A stretch of DNA of 64,000 bases from an uncultured Solibacteraceae bacterium (GTDB taxonomy: Bacteria > Acidobacteriota > Vicinamibacteria > Vicinamibacterales > SCN-69-37), in contig CAYYFE010000016.1 in the NCBI GenBank assembly GCA_964471115.1, positions 6,874 through 70,873 on the forward strand, given 5' to 3'. Both the position numbers and the translations under genes were made by a program. Below the pieces are notes generated by a model. It worked only from the letters and a program-made list of their open reading frames with translations. It did not search any database and was not told the DNA's origin. Shown here in pieces: positions 68-56,906 of the stretch; the stretch's first letter is position 1, and each line of letters begins with the position of its first letter.

Positions 68-1804
68 ATGCGGGATCTACGAGCCTCGATCGGACGTCGT
101 GTGTGTGTGGCCGTGCTGGCGATCGTCGCCGGGCTGGCCGCGCCGGTTCACACGCAGCAGCAGCTGCGCACGCAGGCGGAGGAGTCCAACTGGACGGCCT
201 ACACCCGCCACGAGAACATGCTGGCCTACATGCGCGCGCTGCAGGCCACCACGCGCGACATGCGGACGACGTCGTACGGCCGGTCACATGAAGGCCGCGA
301 CCTGCCGCTGGCGATCTTCGCGCGGCCGATGGTCACGCAGCCGTGGGAAGCCATGGCCTCGGGCAAACCCATCATCATGTTCCAGACCAACGTGCACGGC
401 GGCGAACGCACGCAGCGCGAGTCGATCCTGCAGCTCATGCGCGAACTGGTCACGCCGGGCACCGAGCCGAACAAGGCGCTGGATCACGTCATCCTGCTCA
501 TCGCGCCGCAGATCAATCCGGATGGCTTTGAAGCCAGTCAGAACGGCCAGCGCGGCAACGCGTGGGGCATCGACCTCAATCGCGACTACATCAAGCTGGA
601 ACAGCCCGAAATCGCCAATGTGGTCACCAACGTGTACCACCAGTGGTATCCGCACCTGATCATCGACGGCCACAACGGCGGCGCGCGGCCCTACAACATC
701 AACTACGTCACGACCGCGAATGCCTCGGTCGATCAGGCGCTGGTCACCATCGCCAACAACGAGATCTTCCAGCACGTGCGCACGCGCAACGAGGAAGCCG
801 GGCTGAAGGCCTTCTTCTACCCGGGCGGCAACGCCGAGTTCTGGCAGGGGGTGCCGGCGTATCCCCGCATCGGCATGACCTACGCGACGTTCCTCAACAG
901 CTTCGGCATCACGTTCGAGTCACCGGCGCAGCCGATGGAAACGGGCGTGCGGTCGGGCCTCATCAGCTACAAGGCCGTGCTCGAGTGGGTGGTGGCCAAC
1001 CGGCGGAAGGTGCTCGACACGGTGACGGCCGCGCGTCAGAAAACCGTCGAGATGGGGCTGACCGCCGACGGCGAAGTCATGGTGGCGATGGAGCAGGTGG
1101 ACCACGACTTCACGGTGAGCTACGAGATTCCCGATCCGCAGAACCAGGGCCAGTTCATCACCATTCCCAACGGCAAGCTGCGCACCAAGCCGAACGTGCT
1201 GGCCGCGCGCCCGCGCCCGTACGCCTACATCCTGCCGAGGGAGGCGGTGCAGGCCGTGGCGCTGCTGCGCCAGCACAACATCACCGTGGAGGTGCTGCGC
1301 GAACCGAAGGCGCTGACCGTGCAGGCCTATGAACTGGGCGACGTCTTCTATCGCACCGAATACGACCATCAGGGCGCGACCACCGTCACCGTCAAGGCCG
1401 TGCACACGGTGGAGCGCACGTTCCCGGCCGGCACCTACGTCGTGTCGACGGCGCAGATGCTGGGACGCCTGGTGGCGCATCTGCTTGAACCGGAGAGTGA
1501 CGACAACGTCGTGCTCTGGAATCGCATGGACGCGTGGCTGCCGACGTCGCGCATCCGTCCCGCGCCGGCGAATCTGATTCCCGAAGCGTGGCCCGGCCGC
1601 GGCCAGGGCGCGGGCCCCGCCGGTGCCGCAGCCGCAGGCGCGGGCGCGGCTCAGGGCCGCGGGGCCGGCCGTGGCGCCGGTGCCGGCGATCCCGAAGCCC
1701 AGCCGCCCGCTCGCGGCGGCCGCGGTGGCGCACCTCAGCCGCCGCTGATTCCGATCTTCAAGCTGATGAACCGCACGCCGCTGCCGGCGGTGTTGGTGAA
1801 ATGA
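68..1804 (+). CDS. Secreted M14-family zinc carboxypeptidase-like protein with Gly/Arg-rich C-terminal insert
   Basis: Signal-peptide-like N-terminus; zinc motif NVHGGE (HxxE), NPDG, DLNRD and IDGH; GGAGG RBS at 56-60. Confidence 0.85.
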   Translation: MRDLRASIGRRVCVAVLAIVAGLAAPVHTQQQLRTQAEESNWTAYTRHENMLAYMRALQATTRDMRTTSYGRSHEGRDLPLAIFARPMVTQPWEAMASGKPIIMFQTNVHGGERTQRESILQLMRELVTPGTEPNKALDHVILLIAPQINPDGFEASQNGQRGNAWGIDLNRDYIKLEQPEIANVVTNVYHQWYPHLIIDGHNGGARPYNINYVTTANASVDQALVTIANNEIFQHVRTRNEEAGLKAFFYPGGNAEFWQGVPAYPRIGMTYATFLNSFGITFESPAQPMETGVRSGLISYKAVLEWVVANRRKVLDTVTAARQKTVEMGLTADGEVMVAMEQVDHDFTVSYEIPDPQNQGQFITIPNGKLRTKPNVLAARPRPYAYILPREAVQAVALLRQHNITVEVLREPKALTVQAYELGDVFYRTEYDHQGATTVTVKAVHTVERTFPAGTYVVSTAQMLGRLVAHLLEPESDDNVVLWNRMDAWLPTSRIRPAPANLIPEAWPGRGQGAGPAGAAAAGAGAAQGRGAGRGAGAGDPEAQPPARGGRGGAPQPPLIPIFKLMNRTPLPAVLVK

Positions 1805-1849
1805 TGAAGTGATGAAGTGCTGACGTGCTGGGGTGCTGAGGTGCTCAGG
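1802..1849 (+). repeat. Degenerate 8-bp tandem array, 6 units (TGATGAAG x2, TGCTGACG, TGCTGGGG, TGCTGAGG, TGCTCAGG)
   Basis: Read directly; starts at the M14 stop codon and contains the stop of the four-helix-bundle gene. Confidence 0.85.
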
Positions 1850-2243
1850 TGCGCTTGTGGCGGAGGCGCTCCTTTGGAGTTGGCGTGTTCTGAAGGTATC
1901 GACGCAGCCGATTGGTGACATCGATGGTCTCGGCGATCTGCGCCGTGAGACTACCGTGTTCCTCCGAGCTGATGTAGCCCTTCGCGGACGCTTCTTCACA
2001 GAGATCGAGTAGTTCGTTGAGCGAACCCAGACTGATCACGGTGAATCGCGCGAAGTCGGGATGCCGATACCGTCCGAAGCCCTCCGCCAGATTGCGGCAG
2101 GCGGAACTGCTGGCTGAATCGAACTGGTCACGAAACTTCAGATCGCCCGCGATCGCCCTGCGCTGACACAAGCTGATGACGGCCTTCCGCACGGCGGAAG
2201 CCGACTGCCACGCCCTAAGGTCCTTGAAGCTTGAGACTCCCAT
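1845..2243 (-). CDS. Four helix bundle protein (TIGR02436 / 23S rRNA IVP-like; structural relatives include DGR Avd)
   Basis: MGVSSFKDLRAWQ...FRDQFDSASSSACRNLAEGFGR...FARFTVISLGSLNEL matches the family pattern (F.DL..WQ, DQ..RA..S...NIAEG.GR, A.GSL.E); start set at the Met at 2243. Confidence 0.88.
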   Translation of the reverse strand: MGVSSFKDLRAWQSASAVRKAVISLCQRRAIAGDLKFRDQFDSASSSACRNLAEGFGRYRHPDFARFTVISLGSLNELLDLCEEASAKGYISSEEHGSLTAQIAETIDVTNRLRRYLQNTPTPKERLRHKRT

Positions 2244-2255
2244 GCCGACGGACGT

Positions 2256-2271
2256 TGCAGGCGCTATGCCA
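2256..2271 (-). promoter_or_regulatory. Putative sigma54 (-24/-12) promoter of the four-helix-bundle gene
   Basis: Minus strand TGGCATAGCGCCTGCA = GG-N10-GC, close to consensus TGGCAC-N5-TTGC. Confidence 0.45.
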
Positions 2272-2332
2272 GCGCCAAGCCACGTCTGACGCCGCCAGTA
2301 CGCGATTTCTGCCACCCTGTCTGCTATTGGCG

Positions 2333-2406
2333 CCCCCCCGCCCCCCCGCCCCCCAGCACCCCAGCACCCCAGCACCCCAGCACCCCAGCACCCCAGCACC
2401 CCAGCA
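2333..2406 (-). repeat. (CCCCAGCA)7 array at 2351-2406, preceded by (C7G)2; reverse complement of the 1802-1849 array
   Basis: Seven perfect 8-mers read directly; the minus strand reads (TGCTGGGG)7. Confidence 0.95.
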
Positions 2407-20154: not shown

Positions 20155-20160
20155 AGGTCA

Positions 20161-20216
20161 CAGGGCGCAGGGCGCAGGGCACAGGGCACAGGGATCAGGG
20201 AACAGGGATCAGGGTG
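20161..20216. repeat. 7-bp tandem array CAGGGNN, 8 units
   Basis: Between convergent genes; overlaps the MgtC stop codon. Confidence 0.9.
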
Positions 20217-44048: not shown

Positions 44049-44160
44049 GGTCCAACGGGTCCAACGGGTCCAACAGGTCCAACAGGTCCAACAGGTCCAA
44101 CAGGTCCAACAGGTCCAACGGGTCCGGACCTGATGGACCTGTAGGACCCGTTGGACCCTG
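44049..44160. repeat. 9-bp array (GGTCCAACR)8 followed by 4 inverted units; symmetry centre GGTCC|GGACC at 44125/44126
   Basis: Read directly. Confidence 0.95.
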
Positions 44161-45413: not shown

Positions 45414-45452
45414 TCCTGAAGTGAGGATACGGCGAAAGGGTACTATCGTTTA

Positions 45453-45515
45453 CAGGGCACAGGGCGCAGGGCACAGGGCACAGGGCACAGGGCACAGGGC
45501 ACAGGGCACAGGGCG
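45453..45515. repeat. 7-bp array (CAGGGCR)9
   Basis: Begins 1 nt after the SpoIID stop. Confidence 0.95.
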
Positions 45516-53103: not shown

Positions 53104-53673
53104 CTACCTTCGATTCGGGTCGCCGCTGATCGGCGACATCGTCATCGGCGTCACAGTTAATGGAGTGATCGACAGCAGGTCCGGTTGGATCGAATCGAAC
53201 GTCACCGGCTCAATCGCGATCTGTTCCACCGCCAACGCACCAATGGCGGCCAACGCCGGCACGCGCCGCGCTTCCCAGGCCAGTAGTTCGGGGCTGACGA
53301 CCGGCTGTGCGGCGGTTCCGCGGTTCCTGGGTTCCTGGGTTCTGGGGTTCCGTGCCTGGGTTCGTGGGTTCGTGGGTTCGTGAGTTCCGAGGTTCGCCGC
53401 CACAATCGCACTGCCTGCACCCTGTGCACCTTGTGCACCCTGTGGACCCTGTGCACCCTGTGGACCTTGTGGACCCTGTGGACCCTGTGGACCCTGCAGC
53501 CCTTGGATGAGCACGATGACCGTCAGTCCCGCCGCCACGAGTCCGCCCGCCCAGCGCCAGTCGCCGACGCGGCGGCGTCCGGGCGGCGTGGCGGCGTCCA
53601 GCCGCGCGCGAATGCGCGACTCGAGATCCGCCGACGGTTCGACCTCGGTGATCGCCCGCGCCGCGCTCAGCAT
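53104..53673 (-). CDS. Putative single-TM anti-sigma factor with repeat-derived collagen-like segment
   Basis: Follows an ECF sigma; [15 protein letters not shown] helix, (G-X-Q)9-10; start could extend to 53745 within the repeats. Confidence 0.65.
53314..53396 (-). repeat. Degenerate 8-bp array (GGTTCSTG on +, i.e. CCCACGAA family on -), about 10 units, in CDS
   Basis: Same family as 13122-13233. Confidence 0.8.
53413..53502 (-). repeat. 9-bp array GGT-SCA-CAR encoding Gly-Pro/Ala-Gln triplets
   Basis: Ten triplets: [30 protein letters not shown]. Confidence 0.92.
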
Positions 53674-53761
53674 CTCGTCATCTCGCCATGTCGTCATGTC
53701 GCCACCTCGCCACCTCGCCACCTCGCCATCTCGCCATCTCGTCATCTCGTCATCTCGTCAT
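53671..53761 (-). repeat. 8-bp array (CAYCTCGY on +; RTGRCGAG on -), about 12 units
   Basis: Spans from the sigma stop codon to the anti-sigma ATG. Confidence 0.92.
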
Positions 53762-54366
53762 GTGCGGGTGCGCAGCACACGTCGTGCTTCGGCGACGCGC
53801 CACTTCACGGTGCCGGACGGCACGCTCAGCATCACGGCAATTTCGTCGTACGTGTATTCGCCCGACGCGGCCAGGAGCAGCGTGTCGCGCAGTTTGGGCG
53901 TGAGGCCGGCAATCGCGGCGCGCAGGGCCGCGGCCTCGGCGCGGGCGGCGGCCACGCGCTCCGGGTCGGCGGCGTCCGACGCCATCCGGTCCAGTCCATC
54001 GCCCGCGGCCTCGTCAGCCGGGGTGACACGGCGCCGCCACCAGCGGTCGCGAGACTTGCGCCGGTCGAGCGCCTGCCGCCAGGTGATGGTCAGCAGCCAC
54101 GTCTTGAACGTCGAGTCCCCGCGAAAATCCCCGACCTTCCGCCAGGCCAGCACGAACGCGTCCTGCGCCACCTCTTCGGCGTCCTCGGGCCGCTGCAGCG
54201 CCGCCATGGCGGTGCGGAAGACCGTGCGGAAGTACAGGGACACCAGCGCGTCGAACGCCGCGCGGTCGCCGGCTTGCGCGGCCCGTACCCAGGCGCGCAC
54301 CTGCGGCGTTTCTCCCTCCAGGGGCCGGACAACGGGCGACTCGTCAGCGTCGGGCGTGACGGTCAT
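53758..54366 (-). CDS. ECF RNA polymerase sigma-70 factor
   Basis: [43 protein letters not shown]; start may be 54366 or 54396. Confidence 0.92.
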
Positions 54367-54441
54367 GGCCGGAATGGTCGCAACACGCGGCAGCACCGTC
54401 CCAGTAGACCGCCGGGCGGGCCGGATGGTTGGGTCGGCCGG

Positions 54442-54587
54442 AAGGGCACAGGCAACAGGGCGCAGGGCACAGGGAACAGGGAACAGGGAGACCTTTGGCC
54501 AAATGTGGCCTGTGGCCTGTGGCCTGTGGCCTGTGGCTTGCGGCCTTCGGCCTGTGGCCTGTGGCCTGTAGCCTGTAACCTGTAAGC
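54442..54587. repeat. Inverted pair of 7-bp arrays: (CAGGGNR)7 at 54442-54490 and (TGTGGCC)12 at 54504-54587
   Basis: Read directly; the spacer contains the palindrome TTTGGCCAAA. Confidence 0.92.
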
Positions 54588-54599
54588 GCTGGTAACCCG

Positions 54600-56906
54600 A
54601 TGACTGATGGACAGGTGTTGAATCAAATCCGAGAGCAGGTGGATCACCCCGCCACCGTGAAGGAACTCCTGCAGGTGCTGCGGATTCCTCGGGAGACCCG
54701 TGCGACGTTTCGCCGGGCCCTCAAGCGGCTGGTGGAATCGGGGCAGCTGATTGAAATCCGCGGGAACAGATTCGGCCTGCCCGACCGCATGAATCTGGTG
54801 GTCGGCCGCGTCACGACCAACCCGCGCGGCTTCGGGTTCGTGGAAGCCGAGCGGTCGGGCGACGAGGGGCCCACCAGCATCTTCATCCCCGGCGTGAACC
54901 TGAACCAGGCGATGCACGGCGACCGGGTCGTGGTGCGCGTGGAACGCGCCGGCGACGGCGATCGCGCCGAGGGCCGCATCCTGCGCATCCTGGAACGCGG
55001 CACGGCCTCGGTGGTGGGCCGGTACGAACAGGACGATTTGGGACGCGGTTTCGTCGTGCCGTTCGATCGCCGGCTGCTGATGGACGTGCTCATCCCGAAG
55101 GGCGAGTCGCGCAACGCCCAGCCGGGGGAAATGGTGACGACCGCCATCACGGCCTGGCCGACGCAGACGCGACCCGCGCAGGGGCGCGTGGTGGAAGTGC
55201 TGGGCGACATCAACGCGCCCGGCGTGGACACGGCCGTCATCATCCGCAAGTACAACATCGTCGACGAACACTCCGACGAGGCGGTGAAGGAGGCCACGCG
55301 CCTGGGCGCCGCCGTGAAGCCGAAGGACGTCACCGGCCGCACGGACTTCCGGCCGTGGTCGACGGTGACGATCGACGGCGAACACGCCCGCGACTTCGAC
55401 GATGCGATTTCGCTGGATGTGTTGCCGAACGGCAACTACTGGCTGGCGGTGCACATCGCCGACGTGTCGCACTACGTGACGCCCGGCTCGGCGCTCGATG
55501 CGGAAGCGTACGAACGCAGCACGTCCGTGTATTTCCCGGAGCGCGCCGTCCACATGTTTCCGTCGGAACTGTCGACCGGCCTGTGCAGTCTGAATCCCCA
55601 CGTCGACCGCCTGGTGCAGTCGTGCCTGATGGAAGTGGATCGGCGCAGCGGCGCGGTGGTGCGGTACGAGATGCACGACGGGGTCATCCACAGCGACGCG
55701 CGGATGACGTACACGGAAGTGAACCAGATCCTGACCGAACGTGACCCCGAGGTGCGCGCGCGGTACGCCACGCTCGTGCCGCTGTTCGAGCGCATGGAGG
55801 CGTTGTTCCACATCCTGAACCGCCGGCGGCGCCAGCGCGGGTCGGTGGACTTCGACCTGAAGGAATCCGAGATCCAGCTGGGGGAAGACGGCGAGATCGA
55901 AGCGATTGTCGCCGCGGAGCGCAACGTCGCGCACCGGCTGATCGAAGAGTTCATGTTGCTGGCCAACGAGACGGTGGCCGAACATCTCGAGGCGCACGGG
56001 GTGCCCACGCTGTATCGCGTGCACGAGGAGCCGGACCCGCTCAAGGTGGAGGAGTTCGACGAGTTCATCGGCGCGCTGGGGTACACGCTGGCCGGACCGG
56101 CGGACCGTGTGGAGCCGAAACACTTCCAGAAACTCGTCGAGAAGATCCACGGGACGCCCGAAGAAAAACCTATCGCGATGCTGATGCTGCGGACCATGCA
56201 GAAGGCGCGGTATGACGAGTCGCCGCTCGGCCATTTCGGTCTGGCGACGCGCCATTACACGCACTTCACGTCGCCGATCCGGCGGTATCCCGACCTGGTG
56301 GTGCACCGGTCGCTGCGTGAATCGCGGCACGGCATGTCGGAGGAGCGTCGCGCCGAACTCATCGAGGATCTGCCCGACATGGGGCGGCATACCTCCGAAC
56401 GTGAGCGGCGCGCGGCCGATGCCGAACGCGAGCTGGTGCAGTGGAAGAAGGTGCGCTTCATGGCTGACAAGGTGGGCGATGAGTTCACCGGGTTCGTCAC
56501 CGGCGTCAGCGCCTTCGGTCTGCACATCGAACTGGTGGAGCACTTCGTCGAGGGCATGGTGCACGTCTCGACCATGGCCGACGATTACTACCGCTTCATC
56601 GAGAAGGCGCATCTGCTGAAGGGCGAAAACCACGGCAGGGTGTATCGTCTTGGCGACAAGGTCGCGGTGCAGGTGATTCGCGTGGACCTGGAGAAACGCC
56701 TGATCGACCTCGGCCTGTCGGAGATTCTCGAGGCCGTGAGCCGCAGTGACAAGAACCGCGGTCCGCGCCGGAGCCGCGTGGCCCCGCCGCGTGCGTCGCG
56801 GCGGCAGCCGCAGGCGAAGGACGAACGCCGCCGGGTGAAGAAGGGCAACCGGCCGGGACGCCGCGAGCGCGCCGCGCACAAGGCCGGCCGGCGCAAGAAG
56901 CGGTAG
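54600..56906 (+). CDS. rnr: Ribonuclease R
   Basis: RGFGFV, TIDGEHARDFDDA, VHIADVS, EEFMLLAN, HFTSPIRRYPDL, S1 domain, basic tail. Confidence 0.96.
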   Translation: MTDGQVLNQIREQVDHPATVKELLQVLRIPRETRATFRRALKRLVESGQLIEIRGNRFGLPDRMNLVVGRVTTNPRGFGFVEAERSGDEGPTSIFIPGVNLNQAMHGDRVVVRVERAGDGDRAEGRILRILERGTASVVGRYEQDDLGRGFVVPFDRRLLMDVLIPKGESRNAQPGEMVTTAITAWPTQTRPAQGRVVEVLGDINAPGVDTAVIIRKYNIVDEHSDEAVKEATRLGAAVKPKDVTGRTDFRPWSTVTIDGEHARDFDDAISLDVLPNGNYWLAVHIADVSHYVTPGSALDAEAYERSTSVYFPERAVHMFPSELSTGLCSLNPHVDRLVQSCLMEVDRRSGAVVRYEMHDGVIHSDARMTYTEVNQILTERDPEVRARYATLVPLFERMEALFHILNRRRRQRGSVDFDLKESEIQLGEDGEIEAIVAAERNVAHRLIEEFMLLANETVAEHLEAHGVPTLYRVHEEPDPLKVEEFDEFIGALGYTLAGPADRVEPKHFQKLVEKIHGTPEEKPIAMLMLRTMQKARYDESPLGHFGLATRHYTHFTSPIRRYPDLVVHRSLRESRHGMSEERRAELIEDLPDMGRHTSERERRAADAERELVQWKKVRFMADKVGDEFTGFVTGVSAFGLHIELVEHFVEGMVHVSTMADDYYRFIEKAHLLKGENHGRVYRLGDKVAVQVIRVDLEKRLIDLGLSEILEAVSRSDKNRGPRRSRVAPPRASRRQPQAKDERRRVKKGNRPGRRERAAHKAGRRKKR

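Follow-up and report, generated by a model that had tools for sequence, protein, structure and literature searches.

The inverted pair of heptamer arrays located directly upstream of rnr (ribonuclease R) is most probably (probability about 70%) a gene-less, hairpin-forming member of a species-specific CAGGGYR/CAGGCCA repeat family, whose gene-carrying member is a four-helix-bundle (PF05635) cassette on contig C13 and which spread or persisted together with this cognate cassette. Two points are added by the present analysis: the rnr pair has an identifiable gene-carrying relative, and the dispersed gene-less arrays use the units of the same genome's own cassettes. The genome, that of a soil bacterium of the Vicinamibacterales with relatives labeled Vicinamibacterales/Acidobacteriota, comprises 4.39 Mb (68% G+C, 87 contigs, 98.6% complete). 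The window, i.e., the whole 64,000-nt stretch of DNA that was analyzed, corresponds to C16:6874-70873; coordinates given without a contig refer to the window.

Structure of the array pair upstream of rnr

The arrays are placed between two divergently oriented genes, with the following arrangement.

53758-54368, minus strand: ECF sigma factor gene (likely start ATG at 54368; longest ORF from GTG at 54396)
54404-54434, minus strand: conserved block GTAGACC-N16-GGTTGGGT (minus-strand reading ACCCAACC-N16-GGTCTAC), kept in congener spacers
54442-54489, no strand assigned: left arm, approximately seven CAGGGNR units, one of which is CAGGCAA
54490-54503, no strand assigned: 14-nt loop or spacer GACCTTTGGCCAAA, equal to GACC-TTTGGCCAAA
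54504-54587, no strand assigned: right arm, 12 TGTGGCC units (reverse complement CAGGCCA)
54600-56906, plus strand: rnr (TIGR02063, 804.9 bits; ATG at 54600)

An earlier note on this DNA had described seven CAGGGNR units, a spacer containing a palindrome and twelve TGTGGCC units, situated in the divergent sigma/rnr region and ending 12 nt before the rnr start codon. The window sequence confirmed this description, with a spacer of 14 nt and 12-13 nt between the last right-arm unit and the rnr ATG. The plus strand of the left arm (54443-54489) reads AGGGCA, CAGGCAA, CAGGGCG, CAGGGCA, CAGGGAA, CAGGGAA, CAGGGAG; it is G-rich, with six GGG tracts and 4-nt loops between them, whereas the right arm contains only GG. 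In the latter, four TGTGGCC units are followed by the degenerate units 5-7 (TGTGGCT, TGCGGCC, TTCGGCC), two further TGTGGCC units and three degenerate final ones (TGTAGCC, TGTAACC, TGTAAGC). Tandem Repeats Finder (TRF) assigned both arrays a period of 7, with 6.7 copies (scores of 59-71) on the left and 10.4-12 copies (score of 111) on the right.

The 6/7 match noted earlier between the left unit (CAGGGCA) and the reverse complement of the right unit (CAGGCCA) also holds: six positions are complementary and one differs. Over 45 nt, arm-to-arm complementarity amounts to 76%. The pair is predicted to fold into a single long imperfect hairpin (RNA: -94.8 kcal/mol, z = -4.65; DNA: z = -5.8), in which the 10-nt palindrome TTTGGCCAAA (54494-54503) forms the apical stem, and none of 200 shuffled sequences folded as well. 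The arms are more uniform internally than they are complementary to each other, which implies that local slippage must shape them after their arrival. Since the 14 nt between the arms hold no PF05635 ORF, the pair was classed as a gene-less relative of the cassettes described below and not as a cassette.

Scanning of the region 54200-54750 revealed no promoter-like or terminator-like site; intrinsic terminators (a GC-rich hairpin followed by a U tract) were represented by zero sites, and the pair lies upstream of both genes. An Rfam scan of the pair gave nothing at the gathering threshold (eukaryotic miRNA-precursor hairpins scored ≤29 bits against thresholds of 67-128), and a search for tRNA and tmRNA at this locus found none. 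Comparison of the junctions with the spacers of congeners showed no visible target-site duplication; the pair is without the fixed terminal inverted repeats plus target-site duplication that define a MITE.

The sigma-rnr locus in related genomes

All 19 congeners keep the divergent arrangement of the two genes, together with a GTAGACC-N16/17-GGTTGGGT block. This block (54404-54434 in the window, where the array starts 8 nt beyond it) is probably an autoregulated ECF-type promoter of the sigma gene; the assignment was made because ECF promoters follow a general AAC / GTC pattern. In the congener spacers, the GTAGACC block is followed by a TA[C/G/A]ACT box at a distance of 6 to ~130 nt from the rnr ATG. 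Three congeners have it just 6 nt away, which suggests that their rnr mRNA is leaderless. In the genome studied here, the pair is placed between GGTTGGGTCGG and the rnr ATG, and the box has been replaced, displaced or weakened. Its best counterpart is weak (GGTAACC), and the rnr promoter could not be placed in this genome.

The orthologous sigma-rnr spacer is devoid of arrays in 17 of the 19 congeners. This comparison, which the earlier note had proposed, shows a gain in the present lineage: the rnr pair is recent and lineage-specific, and not an ancestral or conserved regulator. In the two array-bearing congener spacers, the units match those of resident cassettes. The G016 spacer carries a solo CAGCACC array downstream of the TA[C/G/A]ACT box, and in that of G022, a representative of another genus, GGTTGGG and the box are separated by an inverted GATTTAGA pair. 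In each case, the unit matches the arm units of a PF05635 cassette in the same genome (GGTGCTG/AGCACCG in G016 and GAAATTTA/CTCTAAAT in G022), and 14-16-mers are common to the spacer arrays and the resident cassettes. A resident cassette is therefore matched by all three array-bearing spacers (this genome, G016, G022). On the scale of the order, a 6-10-nt repeat array is found ≤350 nt upstream of rnr in 11 of 76 species, with a different unit each time.

Further arrays were observed around this locus. In two other Vicinamibacterales MAGs (L150 and L201), the region upstream of rnr contains the inverted pairs GTGCGCCG/CGCACCCG and CCACGATGC/CATCGTGTC. In the window, the sigma gene is followed by an anti-sigma gene, which has the arrays GGTTCCGG, TGGGTTCG, ACCCTGTGG and CATCTCGC inside it or at its edges (53314-53496 and 53671-53761).

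The position of the pair raises the question of whether it serves specifically to regulate rnr, the sigma gene or both, acting as a structured or G-quadruplex 5' leader or as a promoter spacer dependent on repeat number. It occupies a divergent promoter region up to 12-13 nt from the rnr ATG, the box conserved in congeners has been replaced or displaced, the six GGG tracts with 4-nt loops correspond to the G4-forming pattern of the Xanthomonas/Nostoc heptamers (PMC4692102), and heptamer repeats acting via a 5' UTR and RNase III are on record (PMC12721329). However, it is absent from 17/19 congeners and the unit differs where arrays are present, so the pair is not conserved; the same family is found at ~30 unrelated loci, and the scans described above yielded neither a promoter-like or terminator-like site in 54200-54750 nor an Rfam family above threshold. 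We therefore consider such a dedicated function improbable. A side effect of the pair on rnr expression is likely.

Four-helix-bundle cassettes and the gene-carrying relative of the rnr pair

A PF05635 search of the genome identified ten four-helix-bundle genes, every one of which lies between inverted tandem arrays; the units are all different. The cassettes and solo arrays of relevance are as follows.

Cassette arm units (ten): TGAGGTGC (window 1797-2406), AGTGCGG, GGCAAGTGGC, ACGGGTCCA, AGGGTCC, AATAGGG, CAGGGCA, GGATTGA, TCGTGGGT, GGCGAGGT
1797-2406, minus strand: window cassette (TGAAGTGC/TGAGGTGC array at 1797-1852; gene at 1845-2243, minus strand; CCCCAGCA array at 2335-2406)
C13:25,890-26,500: gene-carrying cassette of the rnr-pair family (PF05635, 46.5 bits, cut-off 33.8; PDB 2RLD, E = 2e-9)
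20155-20214, plus strand: solo array of the rnr-pair family (CAGGGCG/CAGGGCA/CAGGGAT units)
45452-45514, plus strand: solo array of the rnr-pair family (nine CAGGGCA units)

The earlier note viewed the rnr pair as the window cassette architecture with the ORF missing. The architectural part of this claim is supported by the ten bracketed PF05635 genes and by 45 gene-less pairs in the genome, but the counterpart is the cassette on C13: the window cassette is alike in architecture and has an 8-nt unit family unlike that of the rnr pair. The two solo CAGGGCA arrays that had been noted near 20161 and 45453 are both real, and it is plausible that they are half elements, as the note proposed.

The organization is not restricted to this genome. 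Outside it, 29 of the 35 scoreable cassettes of the genus are bracketed by inverted arrays (39/45 when its own ten are included), as are most of the C13-type homologues fetched across the order (n = 29). For the 45 cassettes, protein similarity and arm similarity are correlated (Mantel r = 0.135, 0/2000 permutations), and whole protein clades hold related units across species, e.g., ATTGnnG, at 40-57% protein identity.

In the C13 cassette, the PF05635 gene is flanked by arms in which CAGGGCA and CAGGC(C/T)G units are mixed. The possibility, raised in the earlier note, that related genomes hold no cargo-bearing version is thereby dismissed, as one is present in this very genome. The left arm consists of CAGGCCG, CAGGCTG, CAGGCTA, CAGGGCA and CAGG, and the right arm of CCTGTGC, CCTGCGC and CCTGCAG units, so both unit types of the rnr pair (CAGGGCA and CAGGC-type) occur together in the cassette arms. 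They are also mixed within at least six further arrays, at C13:60494, C58:3339, C17:23565, C67:1818, C25 and C35. An inner inverted repeat of the C13 cassette, ACAGGTACGGA/TCCGTACCTGT, has nine copies in the genome, all beside CAGGNNN arrays, and is found on both sides of two gene-less pairs with loops of ~40 nt (C25:9572-9680 and ~C52:22620-22740). Both have the appearance of C13-type cassette derivatives without the gene. The right end of the rnr pair, CCTGTAGCCTGTAACCTG, resembles the right end of the C52 pair, but its loop differs, the TACGGA motif of the C13 cassette being absent. Given this loop and the difference between the arms at one position per unit, the rnr pair did not arise simply by deletion from a copy of the C13 cassette.

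The genome contains ~45 CAGG[GC]NN arrays. The pattern CAGGGCR x3 (≤1 mismatch) gave 85 matches in it, none in 14 congeners and a single locus in a fifteenth (G006), and the nearest C13-type protein outside this genome shares 46% identity. The rnr-pair family is thus essentially confined to this genome. This distribution bears on another origin of the pair, namely replication slippage in situ from a proto-repeat with no relation to cassettes, for which the congener sequence TACACTCAGGAC, resembling CACAGGC/AACAGGG, offers a starting point. The junction is indeed like the ancestral box (aagTACACTCAGGAC in G008 and G011 vs. aagGGCACAGGCAAC here), and unit number is surely altered by slippage. 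Nevertheless, identical 7-mers are present at ~30 loci of the same genome and in almost no congener, and the inverted partner arm, the strict polarity described below and the shared inner repeats would be left unexplained. Slippage in situ as the sole origin is therefore highly improbable.

Inverted same-family arrays 338-1293 nt apart were considered as further cargo cassettes and rejected: they enclose ordinary host genes (beta-lactamase-like, MBL-fold, TonB-like, phosphoribosyltransferase, DNA glycosylase) and are mostly C-rich-first. Host genes bracketed in this C-rich-first manner are located at C17:18848-19670, C33:17560-18407, C43:32421-33279 and C22:27515-28936; the brackets are the outer halves of two neighboring elements, not cassettes. 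All three GxxExxY (TIGR04256) genes were observed between inverted repeats, i.e., ACATGCCT arrays at C10:43144-43470, ~200-nt palindromic elements at C8:77565-77888 and 46-nt-period arrays at C62:14275-14472. GxxExxY is a second cargo type, packaged as in the four-helix-bundle cassettes.

Abundance, pairing and polarity of arrays in the genome

In the whole genome, TRF identified 663 non-overlapping arrays of period 6-10 (290 of period 7 and 213 of period 8), built from only ~122 unit types. A composition-matched simulated genome (Markov-1, equal size; period 6-10, ≥3.5 copies) contained five such arrays. According to crude, GC3-based gene calls (2834 genes, 81.5% coding), 206 of the 663 arrays lie inside genes.

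The gap between neighboring arrays is ≤60 nt in 74 cases, comprising 27 same-family inverted and 40 heterologous neighbors; a second gap group of inverted same-unit neighbors is seen at ~400-750 nt. Among the 45 gene-less close inverted pairs of the genome, 27 could be classified by context with the crude gene calls: 14 convergent, 10 tandem and three divergent. The intergenic background is 17% convergent, 65% tandem and 18% divergent, and pairs are thus enriched in convergent gaps (Fisher p = 4e-5). The divergent position of the rnr pair is an unusual case.

In same-family pairs whose G/C skew is clear, the G-rich array precedes the C-rich one whichever strand is read (29 vs. 0 in the reverse order, p = 4e-9), and this polarity is common to the rnr pair and all ten cassettes; another example in the window is the pair at 44049-44157. 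Where the flanking genes converge, the G-rich strand of an array coincides with the sense strand of whichever gene is closer (59 vs. 6). Chance juxtaposition would not yield such strict polarity, which argues for a directional process or constraint.

These data also allow an assessment of whether the rnr pair might consist of two solo arrays that were acquired independently with the same preferred polarity, as chance neighbors of related unit that were never a cassette. Each arm is homogeneous, yet one position per unit differs between them; the arms are unequal in length (7 vs. 12 units); 40/74 close neighbors are heterologous; and the convergent-gap rule (59 vs. 6) would by itself create G-rich-first "pairs". 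On the other hand, the 27/74 same-family inverted neighbors are well above chance for ~10 major families, CAGGCCA and CAGGGCR units co-occur in single arrays and in the C13 arms, and the C25 and C52 pairs bear the matched inner inverted repeat. Moreover, the genes flanking the rnr pair are divergent, so a rule placing arrays after stop codons cannot explain its location. Independent acquisition of the two arms thus seems rather unlikely.

Dispersed arrays and resident cassettes

After removal of cassette arms, 641 dispersed arrays remained. A match was defined as a unit identical by rotation or strand. Of these arrays, 396 (62%) carry an arm unit of the ten resident cassettes, compared with 88 (14%) matching any of 88 arm units from 39 congener cassettes.

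The association was also seen across genomes. Each of the six genomes in which the C30-type gene is flanked by ATTGAGG arms contained 8-85 matches to the pattern ATTGAGG x3. Of ten genomes lacking such a cassette, eight had ≤3 matches and two had more, namely G003 (69 matches) and G015 (10). The difference is significant (Mann-Whitney p = 0.005), with no phylogenetic correction, and shared descent is a confounder. No C30-type four-helix-bundle gene was detectable in G003 (91% complete) despite its 69 matches; the assembly may lack the gene, or else arrays may persist after its loss. With GGTTCTG x3, many matches within the genus were found only in G015, whose cassette arms are perfect; the arms of the G008, G014 and G012 cassettes are too degenerate to be matched by this strict pattern.

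A possible mode of spread

In the explanation that we favor, with the rnr pair as a gene-less relative of the C13 cassette, arrays would spread or be maintained together with their cognate cassette, as REPINs are with RAYT. After arrival, each arm may grow and homogenize locally by slippage. The rnr pair would be a passenger, gained in the interval that separates the rnr start from the conserved promoter block of the sigma gene, where it may add a ~150-nt structured leader or re-space the rnr promoter. A repeat hairpin of ~145 nt separating the upstream region from the start codon is evidently tolerated by a housekeeping RNase gene.

We infer that the PF05635 protein may drive its own repeat family. 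The reversed causality, with genes landing in pre-existing array pairs, could also be envisaged; an argument against it is that protein clades retain related units. Extended to many bacteria, it is a tentative and somewhat doubtful proposition that PF05635 (Avd-like, "S23p") proteins are sequence-specific trans-acting partners of STRR-like heptamer/octamer families, with each lineage recognizing its own unit, and that gene-less pairs and solo arrays are their non-autonomous offspring. If true, such a relationship would amount to a symbiosis of the RAYT/REPIN kind, resting on a non-enzymatic protein that binds nucleic acids together with the replication or repair of the host.

A search for a mobilizing enzyme revealed no recombinase, nuclease or reverse transcriptase associated with the arrays. 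An origin of the arrays by reverse transcription, as in diversity-generating retroelements (DGRs), was considered because Avd, a DGR accessory protein that works with the reverse transcriptase, is a member of the PF05635 family (PMC10053308); it was set aside, as the reverse transcriptase domain PF00078 is absent from the 98.6%-complete genome. A RAYT origin was likewise rejected. The sole PF01797 gene of the genome (C2:34198) has different flanking palindromes and no arrays. This Y1 transposase locus (C2:34050-34870; PF01797, 51 bits) has a ~50-nt perfect palindrome on both sides (GAAAATGAGCTCGGAGGTCATTT...AAATGACCTCCGAGCTCATTTTC); it represents a typical RAYT/REP-like unit that has no relation to the heptamer arrays.

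The origin of dispersed heptamer repeats and the function of the very widespread "23S rRNA IVS protein" four-helix-bundle family (TIGR02436), both puzzles of long standing, become one testable question in this genome. Its ten cassettes with ten distinct unit families provide ten natural cognate/non-cognate combinations for binding and mobilization assays.

Comparison with known repeat systems

An analogous organization is found in REPIN/RAYT systems, in which a REP-associated tyrosine transposase is accompanied by its own dispersed palindromic repeats. In both, inverted copies of a repeat flank a single-copy gene, further copies are scattered without a gene as singlets and doublets, each paralogue has a repeat family of its own, and the families are lineage-specific. 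In contrast to RAYTs, the gene encodes a small helical Avd-like protein without a known catalytic domain and not a Y1 (HUH) transposase (PF01797), and the repeats are tandem arrays of 7-10-nt units instead of single palindromes.

Bacterial hairpin MITEs include ERIC, Correia/NEMIS and others. Like them, the gene-less pairs are short inverted-repeat hairpin insertions in intergenic regions, present or absent at orthologous sites. Unlike them, they have no defined termini, target-site duplication or cognate transposase, and their length follows the number of units.

Dispersed heptamers as such have been known since 1990, as the STRR repeats of cyanobacteria. The G-rich heptamers GGGAATC / GGGGAYT of Xanthomonas and Nostoc form G-quadruplexes, and Xanthomonas contains 70-75 array pairs in convergent orientation that are able to form stem-loops (Rehm et al., 2015, PMC4692102). 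The arrays described here share with them the tandem 7-nt units, GGG tracts, hundreds of dispersed, mostly intergenic copies and variable unit number. A position between divergent genes, such as that of the rnr pair, is under-represented in Xanthomonas/Nostoc as well as here (3/27 classifiable pairs). The difference is that ~10 families coexist in this genome, and for each of them a resident PF05635 gene has arms of matching unit; in the Xanthomonas/Nostoc study, no gene was linked to the heptamers, and S23p, four-helix bundles and intervening sequences are unmentioned (PMC4692102).

An intervening sequence (IVS) of 23S rRNA is by definition inserted in an rRNA helix and excised by RNase III. 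The IVS of Coxiella burnetii and Leptospira encodes S23p, a member of the PF05635 family (Warrier et al., 2016, PMC4990558). The gene lies within terminal inverted repeats that form a long stem, and the number of tandem heptamers at the 5' end varies among strains (PMC4990558). The full-length cassettes of the present genome carry the same protein family. In contrast, the rnr pair is without an ORF and lies between protein-coding genes, not in rRNA, and the arms here are long arrays, unlike the 28-bp stem of the S23p IVS. A literature search for a link between four-helix-bundle/S23 genes and dispersed tandem repeats found nothing. Both inverted heptamer-array pairs (PMC4692102) and a PF05635 gene in an inverted-repeat stem (PMC4990558) have thus already been published, and no paper joining them was found.

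Finally, upstream of the HMW adhesin genes of H. influenzae, heptamer repeats act through the 5' UTR and RNase III (PMC12721329). The rnr pair resembles them in that a 7-nt tandem array lies after the promoter and before the start codon, where it could modulate expression via 5'-UTR structure. The HMW array is single and direct and is tied to one gene class and to phase variation, whereas the rnr pair is inverted, comes from a family that is dispersed, and lacks conservation at the rnr locus.
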